This document shows positions 1,400 to 63,932 of a stretch of DNA of 64,000 nucleotides, in pieces. The stretch is from the NCBI GenBank assembly GCA_903843285.1, contig CAIMPC010000073.1, positions 20,578 through 84,577 on the forward strand, written 5' to 3'. Within the stretch, counting starts at the first letter, position 1. Every line of letters starts with the position of its first letter. The translations under genes were made by a program, and so were the position numbers. This stretch comes from Candidatus Omnitrophota bacterium. GTDB taxonomy: Bacteria; Omnitrophota; Gorgyraeia; 2-01-FULL-45-10. Below the pieces are notes generated by a model. It was not told the origin of the DNA and made no database searches. It worked only from the letters and a program-made list of their open reading frames with translations.

Positions 1400-1573
1400 A
1401 ATTATGTAGCTGGCCGGTCAGTGTGGAAAGCTGTTGCTTGGGACTGCTGCGAGTGGTACGGTGGCGGCCTCACTTCGAATCCCTTGAGTTCTCTGACTAA
1501 AATTGGCCCGCCTTCGCGATCAGTTAGCAAGCTACTTGGTGCTTCGGCCGTCTTACCGTTGATGGCGAAGGCG

Positions 1574-1620
1574 GATGGCGTCCCCATGGGGATTCGAACC
1601 CCAGTCGTCAGAATGAAAAT
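1574..1620. repeat. 47-bp perfect direct repeat of the 3' end of tRNA-Glu (att-like island boundary)
   Basis: gatggcgtccccatggggattcgaaccccagtcgtcagaatgaaaat is identical to 6921..6967; covers acceptor 3' strand, T-arm and part of anticodon arm of tRNA-Glu, sequence diverges immediately after. Confidence 0.85.
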
Positions 1621-1698
1621 ATTGTCTCTGTGAACGCTACTTCTAGATTATACTTTATAACTGTAGTATTTGCAAGGCTTTACAGAGCCGCTGTCAAG

Positions 1699-3138
1699 CC
1701 AAAATAGAAATGTCCTATAGTTACCAAAGTAGAAATGTCCTATTTCTATGCTACTGTCAGTAGTAGCCCTTTCTCTTTTGGGGCTACCTTTTCTCTTTGT
1801 TGATACTGTTGATAGTGTGTATTAATCTTAAAGCGCCTCCAGGGATGATCTTTAGGAACCGGCATATATATTCTCTTTGGCTTAAACGCCTTCCTTGGCT
1901 CCTCTTTCTTCGAACGGACGGTTATCTCTATAAACTTCAGCATAGTCTTCTTATGCCAGATGATCATATCCCCATCTATTCTATCCTCAACGATTACTTT
2001 ATCTGTCCTTATATTGTCAAGTATCTGATAGAGCTTACCGTTATGGATAATGGTAAAATCATTCCTTAGAAATCTCTTTGTCTTAATGCAGAGAATTCTA
2101 TCAATATCCATGCCCTTAGACACAGGGCGGTGAAGATCATCTGATTTTAGCGCTTTTACACTAAATCTCTTGGCATAAGCAGGCAAGAAGCGCTCAGCTA
2201 CTTTATTAGCATCTTCTATGGTCCTGGAGTCTTCTAACCTTAGTTCTTTTGTAAGGCGATCTTGGAATGTATTAAATAGCCTCTCTACCCTTCCTTTGGC
2301 CTGTGGCGAATTGGCGTGTATAACATCAACCCCAAGCTCTTTAAGAGCCCTCTCAAATTGGCTTAAAGGCACTATATTATTAAGCTCATCTTCCATAGAA
2401 GGCTTGCCCGTAGACTTATACGTCGAGTGCTTATCCAAATATACGCTTATAGGAATACCATACTTCTTAATGTAGCGCTTGAAGCTGTCCATAGCCGGAA
2501 TAGTACCTTCGTATTTATAGAACCTTCCAAATGGTGTGCCTGTAGCATCGTCTATGTAGCCCATAAAGACGCATTTAGGGCCTCTATCCTCAAGCCATGC
2601 GTGATGAGAACCGTCCATCTGAACCATTTGGCCGAAGTGGTGTTTACGCTCGCGCCATTGACGATGCGGGCGCTTCTTGCGCTTTTTATATGGGATACCC
2701 TCATCTATGAGCCAGAGTCTGAGCGTCTCATCATTTACTTTAAGCTTATCTCTTTCAAAGAGCTTCTCGCTTGCCAATGTCGGACCGAAGTCCGGATATT
2801 TATCCTTAAACAATGATATGATTCTGTCCTTATGCGGCAATATTCTATTGGAAGATCTGCCGCGTAACTTACGGACTATACCTTTGTCACCTTCCTCCCT
2901 CATTACACTTATCTTCCTTCGCACTTGCCGTTCGCTTATATCGATTGATTCAGCAGCTTCCTTCTGCGTAATCACCTTATCGATCGCCTTACGAAGTATA
3001 TGTAAAGCTCTTAATTCCTCCTGCGTAGCCATGATAATGTCCCTTCCTGCCATAATATCCTCCCTTAGAGAAGATCATTATAGCAACTTCAGAATAGGAC
3101 ATTCTTAAATTGGTAGAATAGGACATTATCACTTTGGG
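1699..3138 (-). mobile_element. Insertion sequence (~1.44 kb) with compound terminal inverted repeats, IS481/ISNCY-like
   Basis: Single transposase ORF flanked by ~45-bp imperfect inverted ends, each containing two copies of AATGTCCTAT 25 bp apart separated by ACCAA (left 1705..1743; right as reverse complement 3091..3130). Confidence 0.75.
1746..3053 (-). CDS. DDE transposase with N-terminal HTH and rve (integrase-core) domain
   Basis: 435 aa; N-terminal HTH (ISERQVRRKISVMREEG), catalytic-core signature HANSPQAKGRVERLFNTFQ typical of rve-type DDE transposases (IS481/IS3/ISNCY clade). Confidence 0.8.
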   Translation of the reverse strand: MAGRDIIMATQEELRALHILRKAIDKVITQKEAAESIDISERQVRRKISVMREEGDKGIVRKLRGRSSNRILPHKDRIISLFKDKYPDFGPTLASEKLFERDKLKVNDETLRLWLIDEGIPYKKRKKRPHRQWRERKHHFGQMVQMDGSHHAWLEDRGPKCVFMGYIDDATGTPFGRFYKYEGTIPAMDSFKRYIKKYGIPISVYLDKHSTYKSTGKPSMEDELNNIVPLSQFERALKELGVDVIHANSPQAKGRVERLFNTFQDRLTKELRLEDSRTIEDANKVAERFLPAYAKRFSVKALKSDDLHRPVSKGMDIDRILCIKTKRFLRNDFTIIHNGKLYQILDNIRTDKVIVEDRIDGDMIIWHKKTMLKFIEITVRSKKEEPRKAFKPKRIYMPVPKDHPWRRFKINTHYQQYQQREKVAPKEKGLLLTVA

Positions 3139-3329
3139 ATGACATAGTCAATAACAAGATTTTTAATTTATCTACCTTTTTACCTAACATTTTCATATCT
3201 TCAACATTTGAACTTATAAAATAGTCTCTCATACAAACGATTATTTGATTCAGAGCTTTTATGCTCAATCAGTGTAGGTAATCACCGGAATGATACCAAT
3301 AATAATCATCGTGGTTCCTCGTATATAAA

Positions 3330-3914
3330 TCATACCAATAATAGTAGCTTTCTCTTCGCCCGACTTATAAGAGACGCAACCGTGTTAGCCGGAATATCCA
3401 TGATACTGGCTATGTCATCCTGTGTCTTACCGTCATAGACCTTAAGCCTTAATGCCCTTCTCTCCTTAATTCTGAGATTAGCCATCGACTCTTCAAGCCG
3501 TGACACCGCTTCCTTGGTTTCAACCAATTGTGCCGGATCAGGGTGCTTGCACGGGATGACATCCTCTAGGGTAGTAGTGACATCTTCGGATAGCCTATCA
3601 CTTAGAGACATTGTCATCCTGTCTATATTATTCCGCTTCCTACGATAAACTGCCATTTGATTCATCGTCACAATGGCAAGCCAGCCAGTTAAACATGAAA
3701 TATCCCGCAACTGGGCCAGCTTGTTATCTTCCCATAGCATCAAGAATACTTCCTGGGCTATATCATCAACATCGTTTATAGGTGCCCTGTAGCTCGTTTT
3801 ATAGAGCTTATAATAGACGACCTTTCGCACAATGCTTTGATGCTGCCGGATGAACTCGTTCCATGCAACCTTGTCCTTCCTTATGCAACGGCTTACCATT
3901 TCTTCTGTACTCAT
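3330..3914 (-). CDS. ECF-type RNA polymerase sigma-70 factor (group 4)
   Basis: 194 aa; sigma region 2 (DIAQEVFLMLWE) and region 4 HTH (ALRLKVYDGKTQDDIASIMDIPANTVASLISRAKRKL). SD aaagggga precedes ATG. Confidence 0.8.
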   Translation of the reverse strand: MSTEEMVSRCIRKDKVAWNEFIRQHQSIVRKVVYYKLYKTSYRAPINDVDDIAQEVFLMLWEDNKLAQLRDISCLTGWLAIVTMNQMAVYRRKRNNIDRMTMSLSDRLSEDVTTTLEDVIPCKHPDPAQLVETKEAVSRLEESMANLRIKERRALRLKVYDGKTQDDIASIMDIPANTVASLISRAKRKLLLLV

Positions 3915-4226
3915 ACTGGTCCCCTTTCTGGTCGGACAATAAAAAAGCGAACGCTTATCTATTAGATTTAATAGAAGAGCCTTCGCTATTTACTGTGACC
4001 TATTTAAACTATTTTAGTAACTTGGCACAAAAAGCCCCGTCAACCTTTCGATCGCCGGGGAATGGGTGGGGCACGAAATGAAGATCTATTTCAGATTATA
4101 ATGTCTCTCGGGTGTCGCGGGAATTTTTGCTGGAAAAATTGGTGCCTGATCTTGCTTGCTCACTGATAGGGTGTACCCGAATAGGACGTCTGCTATTAGC
4201 TCAATATCCATATCACTCGATCTTAT

Positions 4227-4523
4227 TCATACGGCGTTCTCGTTAAACAATTTCCGCACATTTTTTTTATGGGTTTCATATAATTCTAAGTCGTTATTTT
4301 CTCTTGCTTTGATTGCTTTCGATTCTTCCTCAATAATTGCATTCTTTATTTCATCTGGCAAAGCGTTCATTTTTTTCCAAAAGATTGATTCGTCTTGGAT
4401 TCTTTTTAGGCTATCTGCTCGTTCTTTTTTGTTATGTGTGCAGGCAAACGATATAGCTGAGATAATAGCTAGCCATTTAAAAAATGAATATTTAATTTTG
4501 GTATAAATATTGTCTTGTTTCAT
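4227..4523 (-). CDS. Hypothetical small secreted/lipoprotein-like helical protein
   Basis: 98 aa, N-terminal hydrophobic signal-like segment (FFKWLAIISAISFAC) followed by charged helical region; AT-rich island cargo. Confidence 0.4.
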   Translation of the reverse strand: MKQDNIYTKIKYSFFKWLAIISAISFACTHNKKERADSLKRIQDESIFWKKMNALPDEIKNAIIEEESKAIKARENNDLELYETHKKNVRKLFNENAV

Positions 4524-4619
4524 AAGACTCCTTTATTTAATCAACTCTGTTGGACCACACAGCACAGTATTATAAATATCTTTTTCATCACTCGCTATTT
4601 TGGTAAATTTTTCTGAAAT

Positions 4620-4940
4620 CTAAAACTTATTAAAAGCTATGATTGCCCAAGTAATGATACTGCCTATTATAAGTATTCTTATAAAAGTTGAGTTTAGAAA
4701 ATACCCTAGTATATCTAATTTTAATCCAACTCTATCTTTAAGTGGCTTCGATTTCGTGTGGCATTTATAACATACATAATTAGAATGCTCATTTGGATAA
4801 TTGTATATATCGAGCGAGGATATGGAAATTTGTTTTCCGCATTTTGAGCAAGGCCATAGGCGAACATTATGACAATAATAACATGTGGTGTCCTCTAAAA
4901 TTGATGCTACTTTTTCGCAATATGGACATTGTGACGCCAT
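4620..4940 (-). CDS. Double zinc-ribbon protein with C-terminal transmembrane helix (candidate anti-sigma factor)
   Basis: 106 aa with four CxxC pairs (CPYC, CYYC, CSKC, CYKC) then hydrophobic helix IRILIIGSIITWAIIAF; cotranscribed orientation with ECF sigma. Confidence 0.45.
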   Translation of the reverse strand: MASQCPYCEKVASILEDTTCYYCHNVRLWPCSKCGKQISISSLDIYNYPNEHSNYVCYKCHTKSKPLKDRVGLKLDILGYFLNSTFIRILIIGSIITWAIIAFNKF

Positions 4941-4990
4941 GCCACACCTCCGTTATTTCATCTTTAATATGCGCACTAGTAATCTTCTCG

Positions 4991-5314
4991 CTATTGTGAG
5001 CGTACAAATGCAATAAACGCCGCTAATAAACATATGCCATATACGATTAGATATGTTTTAAAAATCTGTAGCCAGTTCAAAGACTGCTTCTTCACCACTG
5101 TAAAGTTAAAGCTATAAGAAATTGGGAGGTTTTCGGCATTGCGCACATACCAAATCGGTTGTTTTATCCTATAAGATTTAAGCGGTATAATTGGAAGCCA
5201 AAAGATAGAAATCCATAATGTAGTATCAAGCTCCTCCGCTTCATTTTCTTTGTCTTCTACATAATTAGACTTTCCAAAATGTCTAGTTCCACAGCCATTT
5301 GTGCTACTCGGCAC
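4991..5314 (-). CDS. Hypothetical membrane protein
   Basis: 107 aa, two hydrophobic segments; island cargo, no recognisable family. Confidence 0.35.
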   Translation of the reverse strand: MPSSTNGCGTRHFGKSNYVEDKENEAEELDTTLWISIFWLPIIPLKSYRIKQPIWYVRNAENLPISYSFNFTVVKKQSLNWLQIFKTYLIVYGICLLAAFIAFVRSQ

Positions 5315-5435
5315 ATTAAACCTCCATTATTTTATCAGCTCTGTTATTGTAGTATTTAACGTCTGGGGATTCCATACATCGCATATACTTTTCCAAGAAA
5401 ACTGCGCTGTGCAATATAGGCAATATTTCCTACGA

Positions 5436-5726
5436 TTATAAATAAGCCGCCAATCCACGCACAGATTGTTCCGATGATATTACAAACCCTTGCTGCAGAC
5501 AATGCGCTACTTTTTCCCATGCTACTCTCTTTAATCCGCCTGAGATAAGTATAGACCAAGTTTTATTTGGAAAAGTAATCTGAAAGCCTAATGTTTTGTC
5601 ATAATATCCTTTTGCATTTTTACATTTTTCCACCATAGAATAAATAAGTGCCCCTAACAAAAATAATATAAAAAAAGTCCAGTTATTCTCATTTTTTGTT
5701 ATCCTGCTTAACAATATTTTATTCAA
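5436..5726 (-). CDS. Hypothetical small membrane protein (overlaps alternative-frame ORF 5356..5559; possible frameshifted single gene)
   Basis: 96 aa with N-terminal TM helix FFILFLLGALIYSMV; overlapping 67-aa hydrophobic ORF in another frame suggests frameshift or one spurious call. Confidence 0.3.
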   Translation of the reverse strand: MNKILLSRITKNENNWTFFILFLLGALIYSMVEKCKNAKGYYDKTLGFQITFPNKTWSILISGGLKRVAWEKVAHCLQQGFVISSEQSVRGLAAYL

Positions 5727-5822
5727 TCTCTATCTTTTAAAAGCAAGTATATAGTTACCGGCATGAAGGCATTGCTCATTATCCTATCGGTCTCTTTACC
5801 GCATAGGGATAAAGTTAAGATT

Positions 5823-6743
5823 TTATTCGAGCTTCTTAAAAGAAATATAAAAATTCATTTCTTCGCTCGGATTAACCGGGGAAAGAACCACTAATCGCAA
5901 ATTTCCTTCCCGATCAATGTCAGCATGCCCTGCTGCTTTATCGCGTAAAAAAGAAGTTTGTCGATATTTACTAGTGTCCAAGAAAAACTGCGATGTCAAT
6001 ACCGCGCACTTAGAGACAAAGCCTTTCTCCTCGTAAATCAGACTGCTAATCACGAACTGATAATTATTCTTGCAGCTTAACCCTAATATTATTTCTTCCT
6101 TATCGGTCCTATACCAATGTGCGGATATGTCTAACCTCAGTCCCTTCTCGAAATACCTCTTATAAATGACATCAATTGTTGTCTCTTGTATAAGTAGTGA
6201 GCTCAGGCGCTTGATGTCAATAAACATTTTTTTATTTATTACTCTAACATCTCTGATAAATGGATTTGTTTCGTAATTATTAAACTCTTCATTAGATGCC
6301 ACAGGAAACAATTCAACATTTTCCTTCAAGGGCGTAGTTACAAAAGAGACTATGGGAACTAGTGGGAATTTGATTTTGTATTCCGCTTCTTGTGTCAGCC
6401 AAAAACTACCTTTGTTCCCAAATATGTTACTGCTCTTTATGATCACGCTAGATATAACCGGTGACACAAGTGGCGTTACTGAGTTATTAACCCATATTGA
6501 TGAAAGCGTAGTAACGATTACAACTAAAATCGGTGATATTTTTTCTTTCTTAAACGACCATTGGTATGTTAAGATGTTTAAAAATATAAGCACCCATACG
6601 GTCCAACATAAGCCTATCCATTCCGGAATTATTCTTTTAGACAATAGCGCAGATAGTATTGCCGCTGCAATAGCTATTATGATCCAATAACATATTCTTA
6701 TCGTTTTCATGTGCCTGCCTAATATTCTCAATACCCGAATCAT
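5823..6743 (-). CDS. Hypothetical membrane protein (3 N-terminal TM helices plus ~200-aa soluble domain)
   Basis: 306 aa; strongly hydrophobic N-terminus then unrecognisable soluble domain; first gene of the island operon. Confidence 0.4.
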   Translation of the reverse strand: MIRVLRILGRHMKTIRICYWIIIAIAAAILSALLSKRIIPEWIGLCWTVWVLIFLNILTYQWSFKKEKISPILVVIVTTLSSIWVNNSVTPLVSPVISSVIIKSSNIFGNKGSFWLTQEAEYKIKFPLVPIVSFVTTPLKENVELFPVASNEEFNNYETNPFIRDVRVINKKMFIDIKRLSSLLIQETTIDVIYKRYFEKGLRLDISAHWYRTDKEEIILGLSCKNNYQFVISSLIYEEKGFVSKCAVLTSQFFLDTSKYRQTSFLRDKAAGHADIDREGNLRLVVLSPVNPSEEMNFYISFKKLE

Positions 6744-6920
6744 GATTTAACAAAAAAGCAACCCTTTGGAGGTTGCCAAGCGTTCAATCCATTTTGATTG
6801 TATTTATCAATCATCCTCCGGGGACCGTACGGGGACTATAATACCATAAAATACCACTAAATCCCATTATTTGCCATTAACACGAGTTTAGCTCTAACTA
6901 CTTGCTACTGCTACTTTTAA

Positions 6921-6967
6921 GATGGCGTCCCCATGGGGATTCGAACCCCAGTCGTCAGAATGAAAAT
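6921..6967. repeat. Second copy of the 47-bp direct repeat (within/adjacent to intact tRNA-Glu)
   Basis: Identical to 1574..1620. Confidence 0.85.
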
Positions 6968-7000
6968 CTGATGTCCTAGGCCAGACTAGACGATGGGGAC
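6923..7000 (-). tRNA. tRNA-Glu (anticodon UUC)
   Basis: Minus-strand sequence GTCCCCATCGTCTAG...CAGATTTTCATTCTG...GGGGTTCGAATCCCCATGGGGACGCCA; cloverleaf with anticodon loop UUUUCAU, close match to canonical bacterial tRNA-Glu, encoded CCA. Confidence 0.9.
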
Positions 7001-7022: not shown

Positions 7023-9623
7023 TTATTTCTTATTGCTATTTTTTGCTTTGGTTTTTACTTTTTTTTCGAGGTCCGGCTTCTCGACCGGCGCTGTATTCTC
7101 AATGGCCTTATCTTTCTCCTCGGGCTTCACCTGCTCAGGTGCTTTAGCACCAGGCTGGGGTGCTACCGGAGCCACTGCTTCGGGAACTTTTTCTGCCTCT
7201 TCCTCAGGGACTATCCTGGCGATGGATGTAATCACATCCCCGGAATCGATCCTCATTAATCTTACGCCCTGGGTCGAGCGGCCTGTCGCGCGTATGTCCT
7301 TCACCGGACATCGGACAACCATCCCCTTATCTGTGACGAGCATCAGCTCATCCTTATCCGAGACTGTTTTAAGCCCTACAGCCTCGTCATTCCTGCCCGT
7401 AACTTTGATGTTAATAATACCTTTTCCGCCCCGAGATTGCAACCTGTATTCTTTGAACGGAGTCCTCTTGCCAAAACCTAATCCCGTAACCGTGAGAACC
7501 GTTTGGTCGGCCTTCACGATCTGCATAGCTATAACAACGTCCTTCTTATTAAGGCTTATGCCCCGCACGCCTTTGGCTGAGCGTCCCATATCACGGACCT
7601 GCTCTTCCTTAAATCGTATCGCCTTGCCTTCGCGAGTCGCCAGAAATATCTCGTCGGAACCATTCGTCATCTCGACGCCTATCAGCTCATCATCCTTCTC
7701 GAGCCCCATACCGATAATGCCCCCCTTACGCGGATTAGAGTAGGCCTTAAGATCCGTCTTCTTAATAGAGCCGCTCTTTGTCGCCATAACGAGGAAATGC
7801 CCTTCTTTATATTCCTTTACGGGAACGAATGCGCTTATCTTCTCCCCCTGACCGGTCGTGATAAGATTAACTATTGCCTTGCCCTTGGATGCGCGGCCAG
7901 CCTCCGGTATCTCGTGCACCTTAAGCCAGTGCACTACTCCCTTGTCCGTAAAGAATAATATCGACTCATGCGTCGAAGCTATAAACAGATGCTCGATGAA
8001 ATCCTCTTCCTTTATCTCGGCGCCCGTAACACCTCTGCCGCCGCGATGTTGTTTACGATAGCTTGATATGGGCATTCTTTTAATATATCCGCCATGGCTC
8101 ATCGTTATAACAACGTCTTCTTCGGCTATAAGGTCCTCTATCTCGAGTTCCTCGGCCTCAGGAGCTATCTCGGTGCGCCTTTCATCACCGAATTTCTCCG
8201 ACAGCTCTTTCGTCTCCTGCTTAATTATCTGAAGCACCAGTTTTTCGCTGTCGAGAATAGATTTATAATATTCTATCTTCTTTATTAGCTCTAAATACTC
8301 TTTGTCTATCTTTTCTCGTTCCAGATTAGTTAAGCGCTGAAGCTGCATTTCGAGTATAGCCTGAGCCTGCCTCTCGGAAAGTTCAAACTTTTCCATCAGG
8401 CCGGCCTTAGCCACCTGAGGATCTTTCGATTCCCTGATAAGCTTTATTATTTTGTCGAGGTTCTTAAGCGCTATCTTCAGCCCTTCGAGGATATGCGCGC
8501 GATCCTGTGCCTTCTCGAGGTCAAATTTCGTTCTTCTTACAATAATATCTTTTCTGTGCCTGATGAATTCCGTCAACATCTCTTTCAGCGTCAGCACTTT
8601 AGGGCGGCCGTCGACAAGCGCCAGCATAATGACACCGAATGTCTGTTGCATCTGTGTGTGTTTATAGAGAAGGTTCAATACGACCCGCGCGATGGCTCCG
8701 CGCCTTAACTCTATTACTATACGCATTCCATCCTTATCGGATTCGTCCCTTAAATCGGTGATACCTTCTATCTTCTTATCCTGAACCAGATCTGCGATCG
8801 ATTCGATGAGGTTGGACTTATTAACCATATACGGTATCTCTTTGATGACTATCGCTTCCTTACCGCTCTTCATCTCTTCGACGTAGGCCTTCGCCTGAAT
8901 CCTTAATAAGCCCCTGCCCGTAAGGTAGGCATTCCTTATGCCTTCGTACCCGCGGATAATGCCACCCGTCGGAAAATCAGGACCTTTTATCTTCTTCAGC
9001 AGATCCTTACACTCACAAGCGGGATCATCTATCACATGGATGACGGCGTCGGCGACTTCCTTAATGTTGTGCGAAGGTATATTGGTTGCCATTCCTACGG
9101 CTATGCCGCTCGAGCCATTGATCAGAAGATTCGGAAGGCACGACGGAAGAACCGTCGGTTCCGTAAGTGACCCGTCGAAGTTCGGGGTGAAGTCTACTGT
9201 ATTCTTATCAATATCGAGAAGCATCCAATCGGTGATGTGTTCAAGCCTGGCCTCCGTGTACCTCATGGCGGCCGCTGAATCTCCGTCGATCGACCCGAAG
9301 TTTCCCTGCCCGTCGACCAGCGGATAGCGCAAACTAAAATCCTGCGCCATACGAACCAGCGTGTCGTATATCGACGCGTCGCCGTGCGGATGATATTTAC
9401 CCAGACACTCTCCGACGATCCTGGCGCTCTTCTTATGCGGTTTGTTATGCTCGAGCCCGAGCTCCCTCATCGCATATAGCACCCTCCTGTGGACCGGCTT
9501 AAGTCCATCGCGTATGTCCGGCAGTGCCCTGCCTACAATTACGCTCATCGCGTAATTGATATACGAATCCTTCATCTCCTCTTCAATACACCTGGGAACC
9601 AGCTTCTCATTAAGCGCGTACAT
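7023..9623 (-). CDS. gyrA: DNA gyrase subunit A
   Basis: 866 aa; [28 protein letters not shown] catalytic-Tyr region, long beta-pinwheel C-terminus and acidic/lysine-rich tail. Confidence 0.95.
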
Positions 9624-9636
9624 ATTTCTCCTTGCC

Positions 9637-13458
<3,822 letters not shown>

Positions 13459-13495
13459 TCATTATTACTATTTATTTATACCATTACTCCGACTC

Positions 13496-13846
13496 TTATT
13501 TTTTTATATCGCCTATTCGGAACCTGATCTCTTTAATCTTCTTTCCTTTTAATTGCAACTCCAAGGATTTTACCAACTCCTGTTTTCGGATGCTCAGCTC
13601 GTACAACCAGCTCGAGTTAGCCACATCGATCACCAGACTTGCCTTCTTAAACGATACGGGCTTCGCATGCCTGGCCGCGGCCTCGCCCGCTGAAATTCGC
13701 CACGCATCTTCGATCTCTTCTTTGCCCAGACGCTCCTTACCGCTCAGGCCTTCTATCACATTGCCGATCAGCTCGCTAAAATGCTCGGCCCCCTTGGGCT
13801 TATGCTTAGATCGGCTGTCGGGGCATGACGACATATACATATTCAT
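13496..13846 (-). CDS. DUF721-domain protein (DciA-like candidate helicase loader / small RNA-binding-like protein)
   Basis: 116 aa; WRISAGEAAARHAKPVSFKKASLVIDVANSSWLYELSIRKQELVKSLELQLKGKKIKEIRFRIG matches DUF721 pattern; positioned between gyrB and dnaN where recF/DUF721 usually sit; 41-nt overlap with dnaN. Confidence 0.6.
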   Translation of the reverse strand: MNMYMSSCPDSRSKHKPKGAEHFSELIGNVIEGLSGKERLGKEEIEDAWRISAGEAAARHAKPVSFKKASLVIDVANSSWLYELSIRKQELVKSLELQLKGKKIKEIRFRIGDIKK

Positions 13847-14906
13847 CCGCTATTCTGACGACTCCCGGTTTCTCCGCATCTACGAGCTCGAGCGCCACGG
13901 TCTCTTGATCGACGTTCTTAAGAAGGCTTACCAGATAGTCGGGGTTGAATCCTATAGACAGGTCCTTCCCTTTATACTGAACGTCGAGGGCCACCCGAGC
14001 CTCGCCCGTATGGGGATCGCTCTTAGACAGGACTATCTTATCTTTGGATGCATCCACCCTAATAAACATCGAGTCGGGACTGGTAAACAGCGCGACTCTT
14101 TTTATCGCGCCCAGAAGCGCGGTCCTGGAAACAACCATTTTATCTTTGGCCTCTTCCGGTATCACCCGTTCATAGTTGGGAAATTCCCCCTCTATAAGCC
14201 TCGATACTAGCTTCGTCGTCCCCGTATCAAACATTACCTGTTTCTCCGCAACCGATATCTTCACATCGCCATCGTCGGTAAGCATCCTGTCCAACTCGCT
14301 CACCGCCTTGGCCGGCAATATAAACTTTCCCTCGAGCGTTTTTGGCAGTTGCATCTTCTCCTCGGTCATAGCCAGACACCTGCCATCGGTGGCGACTAAC
14401 CTTAGGTGGGAGGGTTTCAATACAAACAATATACCGTTAAGCACATGTCTTATCTCATCATGCCCCGCCGCAAAACCCGTTCTGCGGAGTAGCGTCTTCA
14501 GCCTCGCCTGCTTCAGTGTAATATAATTCTTATCTTTAAACTCAGGGGGTTTGGAAAACTCTTCCTCCGACAGCCCCATAATTTTAAAATTACTATTCCC
14601 GCATTCTATGTTGATAATATTATTCTTTTTCACTGATATTGATATAATTTCGTCCGGCAGTTCTTTTATAATCTCCGCCAGCTTCTTTGCCGGCACCGTT
14701 ATAGCGCCCGTAATGGATGGCTTAACAGGTATGACTGTAATTATACCGATATTAAAATCTGTCGCTGTCAGGGTTATATTATCATTCGTTGCTTCCATTA
14801 ATATGTGGGACAAGATCGGTTGAATGGTTTTTGAATCAATAACAGTCTGTACGCTCTGTATCCCTTTTAATAATAAATCTTTTGGCGCCGATATTTTCAT
14901 TCCCAA
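13806..14906 (-). CDS. dnaN: DNA polymerase III beta sliding clamp
   Basis: 366 aa, three-domain clamp similarity, downstream of dnaA. Confidence 0.9.
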   Translation of the reverse strand: MGMKISAPKDLLLKGIQSVQTVIDSKTIQPILSHILMEATNDNITLTATDFNIGIITVIPVKPSITGAITVPAKKLAEIIKELPDEIISISVKKNNIINIECGNSNFKIMGLSEEEFSKPPEFKDKNYITLKQARLKTLLRRTGFAAGHDEIRHVLNGILFVLKPSHLRLVATDGRCLAMTEEKMQLPKTLEGKFILPAKAVSELDRMLTDDGDVKISVAEKQVMFDTGTTKLVSRLIEGEFPNYERVIPEEAKDKMVVSRTALLGAIKRVALFTSPDSMFIRVDASKDKIVLSKSDPHTGEARVALDVQYKGKDLSIGFNPDYLVSLLKNVDQETVALELVDAEKPGVVRIADEYVYVVMPRQPI

Positions 14907-15068: not shown

Positions 15069-16445
15069 CTATCCCTTAATACTTTCTATTAAGCGGTCCA
15101 ATAAAATCGTAAAACCCTCTTTAGTCTTCAAATCCCCTTCCACTTTAGAGCAGGCGTGCATTACAGTGGTATGGTCACGCCCGCCAAACTGATCCCCTAT
15201 CTCGGGAAGCGAGTATTCCGTGAGTTGCCTGGCCAGATACATCGCCACCTGCCTCGGGTATGCGATAGCTTTAGAACGCTTCTTCGCCCTCATATCCGAT
15301 AGTTTGATGTCGAAGTATTCGCTGACCTTTCGCTGTATAAGATCGATCGTGACCTTCTTCTCGCCCTCGATTATCATGTCCTTTAAAACTTCCTTCGCAA
15401 GCTCCACCGAAACAGTCTTGCCTATGAGCTTAGAATAGGCGACGACGCGTATTAAAGCACCTTCGAGCTCTCTGATGTTTGTCTTAACTTTCTCGGCGAG
15501 AAAATAGAATATGTCCTCACCGAGAGATGTGCCCGCCAACTCCGACTTTCTCTTTAGTATGGCGATCCTCGTCTCGAAATCAGGCGGCTGGATGTCGGTA
15601 ACCAGGCCATACAAGAACCGCGATACCAGGCGCTCTTCCAGCTTATTGATCTCCTTTGGCGGGCGGTCGCTCGTGACAACGATTTGCTTGTGGGCGTCGT
15701 ATAAAGTGTTGAAGGTGTGGAAAAACTCTTCCTGGGTGGAGTCTTTCCCCGCTATAAAATGTACGTCATCTATCAATAATAGATCGACGCTGCGGTACTT
15801 ATCCCTGAATTTAGTCATCGTGCGATTTTGAATCGCGCCTATCATCTCATTGCAGAAGTCCTCGCTGGATATATATAGTATCTTAACCTTCGGATTCTTT
15901 TGAAGCACACAATCGCCTATAGCATGCATTATGTGAGTCTTGCCGAGGCCGGTGCCCCCGTATATGAATAATGGATTATAGGCTTTAGCCAGGGAGTCTG
16001 ATACCGCCATCGCCGCCGCGTGAGCAAATCTATTAGACGGCCCGATGACGAAACTGTCAAATGTATATTTGGGGTTCAGGCCTATCTCTCCGGCGTGGTC
16101 CGAAATGTGTTTTGAAAAAGGCCAAAAACCTTTAGCCTCTTTTCTCTCCCCATCTTTTTTAGCGCTATCAGGGATCGCCGGCGCCGGCAGGCGATCATTC
16201 AATACGAATTCAATAGCTATATTAGCACCGCACGCCCTCCTGACGCCGGAATTGATAATAGGCATATATCTATTCATAAGCCAGTCCTGACAGAATTTGT
16301 TGGGGATCTCGAGAATCATCTTTTCCGACGTGCATGAAGAGCAGTTGATAGGACCGAACCATATATTAAAGGTTTGCTCATTATCGAGATCCTTCCTTAT
16401 ATGTTCTAGAGCCTTACTCCAGGCCGTGGCACCGGAATTACTCAT
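15069..16445 (-). CDS. dnaA: Chromosomal replication initiator DnaA
   Basis: 458 aa; AAA+ Walker A GGTGLGKTHIMHAIG, C-terminal DNA-binding domain. Confidence 0.95.
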   Translation of the reverse strand: MSNSGATAWSKALEHIRKDLDNEQTFNIWFGPINCSSCTSEKMILEIPNKFCQDWLMNRYMPIINSGVRRACGANIAIEFVLNDRLPAPAIPDSAKKDGERKEAKGFWPFSKHISDHAGEIGLNPKYTFDSFVIGPSNRFAHAAAMAVSDSLAKAYNPLFIYGGTGLGKTHIMHAIGDCVLQKNPKVKILYISSEDFCNEMIGAIQNRTMTKFRDKYRSVDLLLIDDVHFIAGKDSTQEEFFHTFNTLYDAHKQIVVTSDRPPKEINKLEERLVSRFLYGLVTDIQPPDFETRIAILKRKSELAGTSLGEDIFYFLAEKVKTNIRELEGALIRVVAYSKLIGKTVSVELAKEVLKDMIIEGEKKVTIDLIQRKVSEYFDIKLSDMRAKKRSKAIAYPRQVAMYLARQLTEYSLPEIGDQFGGRDHTTVMHACSKVEGDLKTKEGFTILLDRLIESIKG

Positions 16446-63847: not shown

Positions 63848-63932
63848 GCGGAGATGGTGGAACTGGCAGACACGCATGTTTGAGGGGCATGTGCCGCAAG
63901 GCTTGGGGGTTCAAATCCCCCTCTCCGCACCA
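63848..63932 (+). tRNA. tRNA-Leu (anticodon GAG), long variable arm
   Basis: GCGGAGATGGTGGAACTGGCAGACACGCATGTTTGAGGGGCATG + variable arm + GGGGGTTCAAATCCCCCTCTCCGCACCA. Confidence 0.85.

Follow-up and report, generated by a model that had tools for sequence, protein, structure and literature searches.

Islands that enter tRNA genes with the help of a tyrosine integrase leave a known footprint, a regenerated tRNA gene (tDNA) together with a displaced fragment of its 3' part in the same orientation; the anticodon loop is a standard sublocation of the crossover, and attP was found to be centred on the anticodon in 2083 of 3919 islands (PMC4383910). Anticodon loop, T-loop and 3' end are the recognised crossover sublocations, and the span that reaches from the anticodon loop as far as the CCA is a recognised extent of attB for these integrases (PMC4383910; bioRxiv 10.1101/2020.11.02.365908). 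Elements that are flanked by att sites and have no integrase form a category that has already been named, the cis-mobilizable element (CIME), which results from decay and beside which a newly arriving element can insert at the same site (PMC5704250); it was defined for elements related to ICESt1 and ICESt3 of Streptococcus thermophilus (Pavlovic 2004, Bellanger 2011, reviewed in PMC5704250). Here we describe a 5300-bp island (1621..6920, named island A, all genes on the minus strand) next to the tRNA-Glu(UUC) gene in a window of 64,000 nucleotides from Candidatus Omnitrophota bacterium (contig CAIMPC010000073.1 of assembly GCA_903843285.1; the window is the whole stretch of DNA that was analysed, and positions refer to it unless a relative or another contig is named). 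It is best read as an integrase-less, att-flanked and CIME-like remnant, a known and fairly ordinary kind of element, in Omnitrophota. Recombinase-less elements also exist in staphylococci, where pseudo-SCC elements are cassettes resembling the staphylococcal cassette chromosome (SCC) that are located at orfX/rlmH and have no ccr recombinase genes. Like island A they carry site-specific direct repeats and are thought to be movable only by the recombinases of other cassettes at the same site, but their target is the 3' end of a protein-coding gene and the enzymes are large serine recombinases, whereas island A is located at a tRNA gene and would have used a tyrosine integrase.

In the first 12 kb of the window ARAGORN called a single tRNA, the intact tRNA-Glu(ttc) at 6923..7000 on the minus strand with its CCA encoded, and the Rfam tRNA model RF00005 matched it with 58.6 bits (gathering score 29). 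A direct repeat of 47 nt with 100% identity and the same orientation connects this gene with the far end of the island. One copy, the attL core (6921..6967, minus strand), overlaps the tRNA gene, and the other one, the attR core (1574..1620, minus strand), is a displaced chromosomal 3' fragment of tRNA-Glu. With up to 3 mismatches allowed the repeat has exactly 2 matches in the window and 0 in 100 dinucleotide-preserving shuffles. Read on the tRNA strand, its first base is tRNA position 34, with which the 5' anticodon-stem arm ends; anticodon loop, variable region, T-arm, 3' acceptor strand and CCA follow, and 2 further nt lie beyond the CCA. The element is thus bounded by an intact tRNA and a cognate fragment in the same orientation, as the islands collected with Islander are, and the edge of the fragment lies beside the anticodon loop, at one of the recognised crossover sublocations. 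Beyond the repeat the identity of the two copies falls to chance level (12/40 towards the island, 4/40 on the outer side), and neither ARAGORN nor Rfam called a tRNA or pseudo-tRNA at 1574-1660, so that 1574-1620 is a sharply bounded 3' fragment and not a decayed second gene. Next to the fragment follows an inverted repeat (1508..1574, minus strand; arms 1508-1522 and 1560-1574, 93% complementary) with a 15-bp stem and a T-run on the tRNA strand, which is probably the original terminator of tRNA-Glu. On the opposite side the attL-proximal arm (6744..6920, minus strand) is non-coding and contains tandem 10-bp repeats of TA[TA]AATACCA at 6837-6856, which may be arm-type binding sites. As the tDNA is regenerated, its 3' fragment has the same orientation and the crossover falls at the anticodon loop, the reading of both repeats as att cores is well supported, and the 3' 45 nt of the tRNA within the attL core (6923-6967) came from the inserted element. 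The initial annotation had proposed just this, a tRNA-Glu(UUC) with a perfect 47-bp copy of its 3' end as an attL/attR signature, and had named a degraded second tRNA-Glu gene as what would speak against it; its proposal is upheld by the tRNA calls, the repeat search and the sharp edge of the repeat.

We fetched 80 related Omnitrophota loci, the best gyrA relatives being Candidatus Omnitrophota with 74-92% identity. At about 45 of the 80 loci gyrA, tRNA-Glu, (nagA) and glmS are contiguous, with the start of glmS 0.1-1.3 kb after gyrA/tRNA-Glu. In one relative (L017, gyrA 76% identical) tRNA-Glu at 7025-7102 is followed after 52 bp by nagA at 7155-8231, and at the level of the clade this arrangement is, on comparative grounds, the empty site that had been foreseen, with tRNA-Glu abutting nagA. 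None of the 80 loci encodes an island protein, and the possibility that relatives carry the same genes here without the repeat falls away with this count; judged from the comparison, the island is an insertion relative to the clade. The expected empty site was therefore found for the clade but not for the species: exact-protein look-ups of nagA, gyrA, o306 (the 306-aa membrane protein described below), the sigma factor and the transposase gave no same-species attB and returned only island-bearing contigs, contigs broken at the repeat and contigs with the different junction B described below, a weak negative as short-read contigs break in the repeat. Partial copies of tRNA-Glu are present near the gene in four relatives (L007, L028, L036 and L056), as might suit an origin of the 47-bp copy from a second tandem tRNA-Glu gene, with the intervening DNA brought in by IS (insertion sequence)-mediated or illegitimate recombination and no att sites involved. 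These copies, however, are 5' fragments upstream of the tRNA accompanied by a GIY-YIG open reading frame (ORF), which is a different structure, and the closest relatives have a single tRNA-Glu. Moreover, the 47/47 identity falls to 27-30% exactly at the boundary of anticodon stem and loop as in a recombination junction and not as in decay, and the edges of the island show neither IS-type inverted repeats nor a target-site duplication. We consider a tandem tRNA gene as the source of the copy to be very improbable.

The base composition agrees with an insertion from outside. The GC content of 1621-6920 is 0.381 (0.368 without the IS) compared to 0.469 in the rest of the window, and no other 5.3-kb segment of the 64 kb is lower in GC (mean 0.463, sd 0.025). 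In tetranucleotide usage 3145-6920 lies at a distance of 0.390 from the host profile, whereas 107 host windows gave 0.167 ± 0.021 with a maximum of 0.253 (z = 10.8). At third codon positions the GC content (GC3) is 0.27-0.38 in the five ORFs of 98, 106, 107, 66 and 306 aa, compared to 0.45-0.58 in the host genes nagA, gyrA, gyrB, dnaN, dnaA, yidC, pheT, thrS and dxs. By its composition, the island DNA is foreign. The sigma factor gene (GC3 0.50) and the IS transposase (0.45) are host-like, and therefore the strongly AT-rich part is about 4000-6900; the earlier description of a clearly AT-richer island holds for this part and for the island as a whole, but not for these two genes.

Many contigs from short reads end inside the 47-bp repeat or close to it (L002, L097 and L098), and one might suspect that a foreign contig was mis-joined at the tRNA-derived repeat. 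The tRNA-side junction (gyrA-tRNA-island) is, however, spanned by the independent contigs L087, L088 and L099, which come from several samples and assemblers, and the nagA-side junction (island-IS-core-nagA) by the independent contigs L001, L003 and L004. In addition, the window is also contained in a 151,729-bp metagenome contig of the Joint Genome Institute (JGI; 3300022555 Ga0212088_10000140). With this independent coverage of both junctions in several samples, the structure is not an assembly artefact and a mis-join is effectively refuted. Over 3.6 kb the contig L099 differs from the window at only 2 positions, single-nucleotide polymorphisms at 6840 and 6864 in the attL-proximal arm that adjoin the TA[TA]AATACCA repeats. 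The gene order is nagA (314-1399), island, tRNA-Glu, gyrA (7023-9623), gyrB (9637-13449), dciA, dnaN and dnaA (15069-16445), with those given positions on the minus strand, followed by the divergent rnpA-yidD-yidC-parAB. The island lies about 8 kb from dnaA, which agrees with its initial placement between the nagA-glmS side and gyrA near the replication origin.

What the island does not contain is a recombinase. Pfam, PHROGs, NCBIfam and PADLOC found none among its ORFs, and a six-frame Pfam search of 3145-6922 for integrase relics (E<=1, stops masked) showed only the sigma factor, in line with the initial annotation, which had listed no tyrosine or serine recombinase. Precomputed Pfam calls for 6-64 kb of the window and for 10 kb beyond nagA, which list only housekeeping genes, include no recombinase either. 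There is also no relaxase, type IV secretion system or phage gene in the island, and besides the IS transposase the sigma factor is the only relic of a mobile-element type. For an autonomous island its length of 5.3 kb (3.8 kb when the IS is left out) is small. The excised circle was searched for with an exact 70-nt pattern of the attP junction among the JGI metagenome contigs (0 matches), and a 72-nt two-way degenerate pattern for the gyrA-tRNA junction or junction B, which matched locally, had 0 matches in the JGI metagenome collection; these negatives are weak, since the degenerate pattern should have matched the window's own source contig, a JGI record, so that either this contig is missing from the collection or patterns of this type do not come up there. 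A 42-nt core, used to find a phage attP with the same core, had 0 matches in IMG/VR. A 25-nt pattern of T-arm and acceptor matched six stretches from GC-rich viral contigs that are unrelated and in which other tRNA-Glu genes are used, and was discarded as not relevant.

Compared with the described systems, island A shares with the islands of Islander the tDNA with its 3' fragment, the anticodon-centred block, the foreign composition and the position directly downstream of the tRNA, but these islands must hold a tyrosine integrase gene and island A has none (PMC4383910). With CIMEs it shares the attL and attR flanks (two identical 47-bp cores), the absence of integration and transfer genes, whose former presence we infer, and a site that is used by other elements, which makes accretion conceivable. 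For CIMEs, descent from an integrative and conjugative element (ICE) or an integrative and mobilizable element (IME) is implied and cis-mobilisation has been shown experimentally, whereas for island A both are putative. It also differs from them in having no conjugation or relaxase relic, the sole hint at such a descent being the sigma factor with homologues in XRE/HTH_17 modules, and in its host, an uncultivated member of the Omnitrophota.

We therefore favour, with reasonable though far from full confidence, that island A is what decay has left of a mobile element after its site-specific integration into an Omnitrophota tRNA-Glu(UUC). A circular element with an attP holding the 3' 45 nt of the tRNA and 2 nt more would have been recombined by a tyrosine integrase with the chromosomal tRNA-Glu, the strands being exchanged within the anticodon loop or close to it. 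The product would be what is present today: at attL (6921-7000) the tRNA is regenerated, and at attR (1574-1620) the former 3' fragment lies displaced, still followed by the native terminator. Subsequently deletion would have removed the module for integration and excision and any module for transfer or replication, and an ISNCY element would have landed 71 bp from attR, which would leave the 3.8 kb of cargo now seen, a sigma factor of mobile-element type and five orphan membrane or Cys-rich ORFs. The remnant keeps both att cores and cannot move alone; it would need an integrase of matching specificity, which could come, for example, from an element entering the same tRNA.

The initial annotation had left the choice between a decayed element, a satellite mobilised in trans and a new minimal island type. 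A decayed remnant is favoured over a new island family because the gene set recurs nowhere, the only mobile-element-like gene left beside the IS transposase is a regulator, and disruption continues, as seen from the IS 71 bp from the attR core and from a population variant with a broken sigma gene. With no other occurrence of the gene set, one homologue of o306 and a category, the CIME, that already has a name, the idea of a new type finds no support. Several points weigh against a decayed remnant. No integrase-bearing relative of the island was found, and it is therefore only presumed that the integrase was lost rather than never present; its class (tyrosine) is judged from the type of site, and an integrase could lie elsewhere in the genome. 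There is no clear sign of a deletion adjoining the IS, where only a 5-bp candidate duplication, GTCAA, was seen. Furthermore, the 47/47 cores and the intact cargo ORFs argue for a recent event, which is slightly uneasy with extensive decay.

The IS itself (1692..3144, minus strand, about 1.45 kb) belongs to the ISNCY family, as its 435-aa transposase (1746..3053, minus strand) exceeds the cut-off of NCBIfam NF033594 (359 bits, cut-off 250) besides matching PHROG transposase families, and it has terminal inverted repeats of about 50 bp, each with two sub-repeats. The exact transposase protein is on record at this locus only. The inverted repeats, at 1692-1744 and 3093-3144, lie inside the island, the edges of which are formed by the 47-bp direct repeat of the tRNA, and the whole island as a transposon or IS-bounded element was therefore rejected. 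GTCAA is the sole candidate for a target-site duplication of the IS and non-significant, as about 0.2 such duplications are expected by chance over all offsets tried; an IS-mediated deletion as the cause of the integrase loss is by this neither supported nor excluded.

A look at other contigs from the same population revealed that the site is not always occupied by island A. Two contigs (L100 and L101) match the window with 0 differences along about 3.1 kb of gyrA and tRNA and diverge right after the CCA into a sequence of 293 bp (junction B; L100:3094-3386, L101:3056-3348) that is neither island A nor nagA flank. It contains a terminator-like hairpin and three 13-bp direct repeats that resemble arm sites. 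Since contigs with identical gyrA DNA carry different sequence after the same tRNA, the site is polymorphic in the population. Contigs with this junction were found in at least 5 sample-assemblies, and one of these samples also contains island A DNA (L104). Junction B could mark an element stacked in tandem by accretion, or a sibling strain in which something else occupies the site; less likely, it stems from a second tRNA-Glu locus that was joined by way of the 78-bp gene. The two contigs both end at the same base. For an extension of this element B an exact 38-mer had 0 matches in IMG/VR and blastn found no match in phage records; its 17-aa ORF start, padded with X, gave no candidate, the query being very short.

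In a third state of the locus, besides island A and junction B, the sigma gene of island A is broken: in L114:1022-1186 and L115:719-883 it departs from the window at position 3467, being identical up to codon ~148, after which unrelated sequence takes its place and encodes the end of a converging membrane-protein ORF; this suggests a further insertion or rearrangement inside the island. The relative L007, whose tRNA-Glu is 100% identical to that of the window, carries 120 bp downstream of the intact gene a degenerate copy of the tRNA-Glu 3' part (L007:14435-14472, 79% identity), possibly a scar from earlier integration into this site; the unrelated cargo beyond it comprises a 289-aa membrane ORF, an IS200-like Y1 transposase and an rve-type IS. 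The membrane ORF beside this tRNA-Glu has no similarity to o306. In several of the closest relatives the contigs stop at or near tRNA-Glu. Junction B, the fragment and cargo in L007 and the relatives' contigs that end at the tRNA together suggest a recurrent docking site in the clade.

These findings bear on whether island A is a functional satellite without integrase or an active CIME that obtains the enzyme from another tRNA-Glu element, in trans or, after tandem accretion in the order tRNA - element B - core - island A - core - nagA, in cis. Both att cores are intact and identical and so are the cargo ORFs intact, a different sequence with three arm-site-like repeats follows the CCA in L100 and L101 and recurs in several sample-assemblies, one sample (ERZ27313081) holds both this junction (L101) and island A DNA (L104), and cis-mobilisation of CIMEs by accretion is documented (PMC5704250). 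On the other hand, element B is known over 293 bp, no contig joins it to island A, and the contigs upstream of island A run straight into tRNA and gyrA (L087 and L088). The attP junction was not found in the search described above, again a weak negative, the IS close to the attR core may have cut an arm of the att site, and the gene set is seen nowhere else. Such a functional element is in our view rather unlikely. That the tRNA-Glu near the origin is a live shared docking site with island A as an integrase-less passenger, moved with or by element B through accretion and cis- or trans-mobilisation, we regard as distinctly unlikely.

Island A, taken as a decayed remnant, is a clean and well-delimited case in which the classic signature of tRNA integration can be read in the uncultivated phylum Omnitrophota, and it would mean that in this phylum, just as in cultivated bacteria, the decay of islands leads to att-flanked remnants with no integrase. 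Island finders that depend on an integrase miss remnants of this kind, which mark docking sites for the stacking of new elements. With its three states the polymorphic locus would be a handy strain marker in these metagenomes and somewhere to seek an integrase-bearing partner. The finding opens no new mechanistic question. If element B turned out to carry a matching integrase and to be stacked on island A, the locus would be a working site of accretion and cis-mobilisation in an uncultivated phylum, and if island A were moved with or by it, this would be the first such system described in this candidate phylum, with a CIME-like element of only about 4-5 kb.

The cargo had initially been described as an rve-type IS, an ECF (extracytoplasmic function) sigma factor and five unknown membrane, Zn-ribbon or secreted ORFs, and family scans and hydropathy bore this out with an IS transposase, an ECF-type sigma factor and Cys-rich/TM and membrane ORFs. 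The sigma factor (3330..3914, minus strand, 194 aa) is an ECF-type member of the sigma-70 family (Pfam Sigma70_r4_2 3e-13, TIGR02937 1e-19, phrog_1740 7e-21) and belongs to a small family of 13 homologues, two of which, 59% and 68% identical, have usable context. Both adjoin a divergently transcribed XRE/HTH_3 repressor; one of them (P0009) is also accompanied by DUF2958 and HTH_17 genes and the other (P0005) by a patatin/lipase and unknown ORFs. Going by these gene neighbourhoods, they are regulatory modules of the mobile-element kind; no tRNA or integrase is present on the short contigs of the sigma homologues.

The five remaining ORFs, all on the minus strand, have no significant family in Pfam, PHROGs, NCBIfam or PADLOC. 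The 98-aa ORF (4227..4523), which is called as a gene on contig L086, has a hydrophobic N-terminal stretch ending in Cys, a possible lipoprotein signal. The 106-aa ORF (4620..4940) has 8 Cys, a C-terminal transmembrane helix predicted from hydropathy and a weak match to the double zinc-ribbon PF12773 (E=0.004, below cut-off), and the 107-aa ORF (4991..5314) likewise has a predicted C-terminal transmembrane helix. A 66-aa ORF (5436..5636), called on metagenome contigs (L086 gene 1315-1515), is the short form of a 96-aa ORF (5436..5726). The largest one, o306 (5823..6743, 306 aa, called as 295 aa), is a membrane protein with N-terminal transmembrane helices and a beta-rich C-terminal domain and is not a recombinase; 5.8 billion proteins contained one non-self homologue of it, the context of which is different and defence-like. 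The gene set was found together nowhere else. In PHROGs only the transposase and the sigma factor had matches, no similarity to the island was found in IMG/VR or in the INPHARED phage records, and among viral contigs the sigma and o306 families had one match only, with 26% identity. The island does not qualify as a prophage or phage satellite, as no phage structural, packaging, replication or capsid-hijacking genes were found in it.

Some observations concern the neighbouring genes and the relatives. The 1270-aa GyrB of the window contains an intein (Intein_splicing domain on the called product). In L007 gyrA (8405-13825) encodes 1806 aa with two large intein-like inserts, and in several other relatives the gyrA matches span about 3.8 kb. 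In the relatives with tRNA-Glu 5' fragments the order is gyrA, 5' fragment, an ORF of about 80 aa of the GIY-YIG type and the intact tRNA (L028 at 12434-12867, L007 at 13833-14348, L036 and L056), and in L007 the 5' fragment is further split by two inserts of about 64 bp; the arrangement has the look of a small insertion that bears GIY-YIG and by which the 5' part of tRNA-Glu is duplicated. Within the window two unannotated ORFs (163 and 52 aa) are located between tRNA-Gln and tRNA-Leu. Immediately behind tRNA-Leu(GAG) (63848-63932) a gene of the GIY-YIG family begins at about 63970 and is cut off by the end of the window, a pairing that echoes the GIY-YIG/tRNA association of the relatives.

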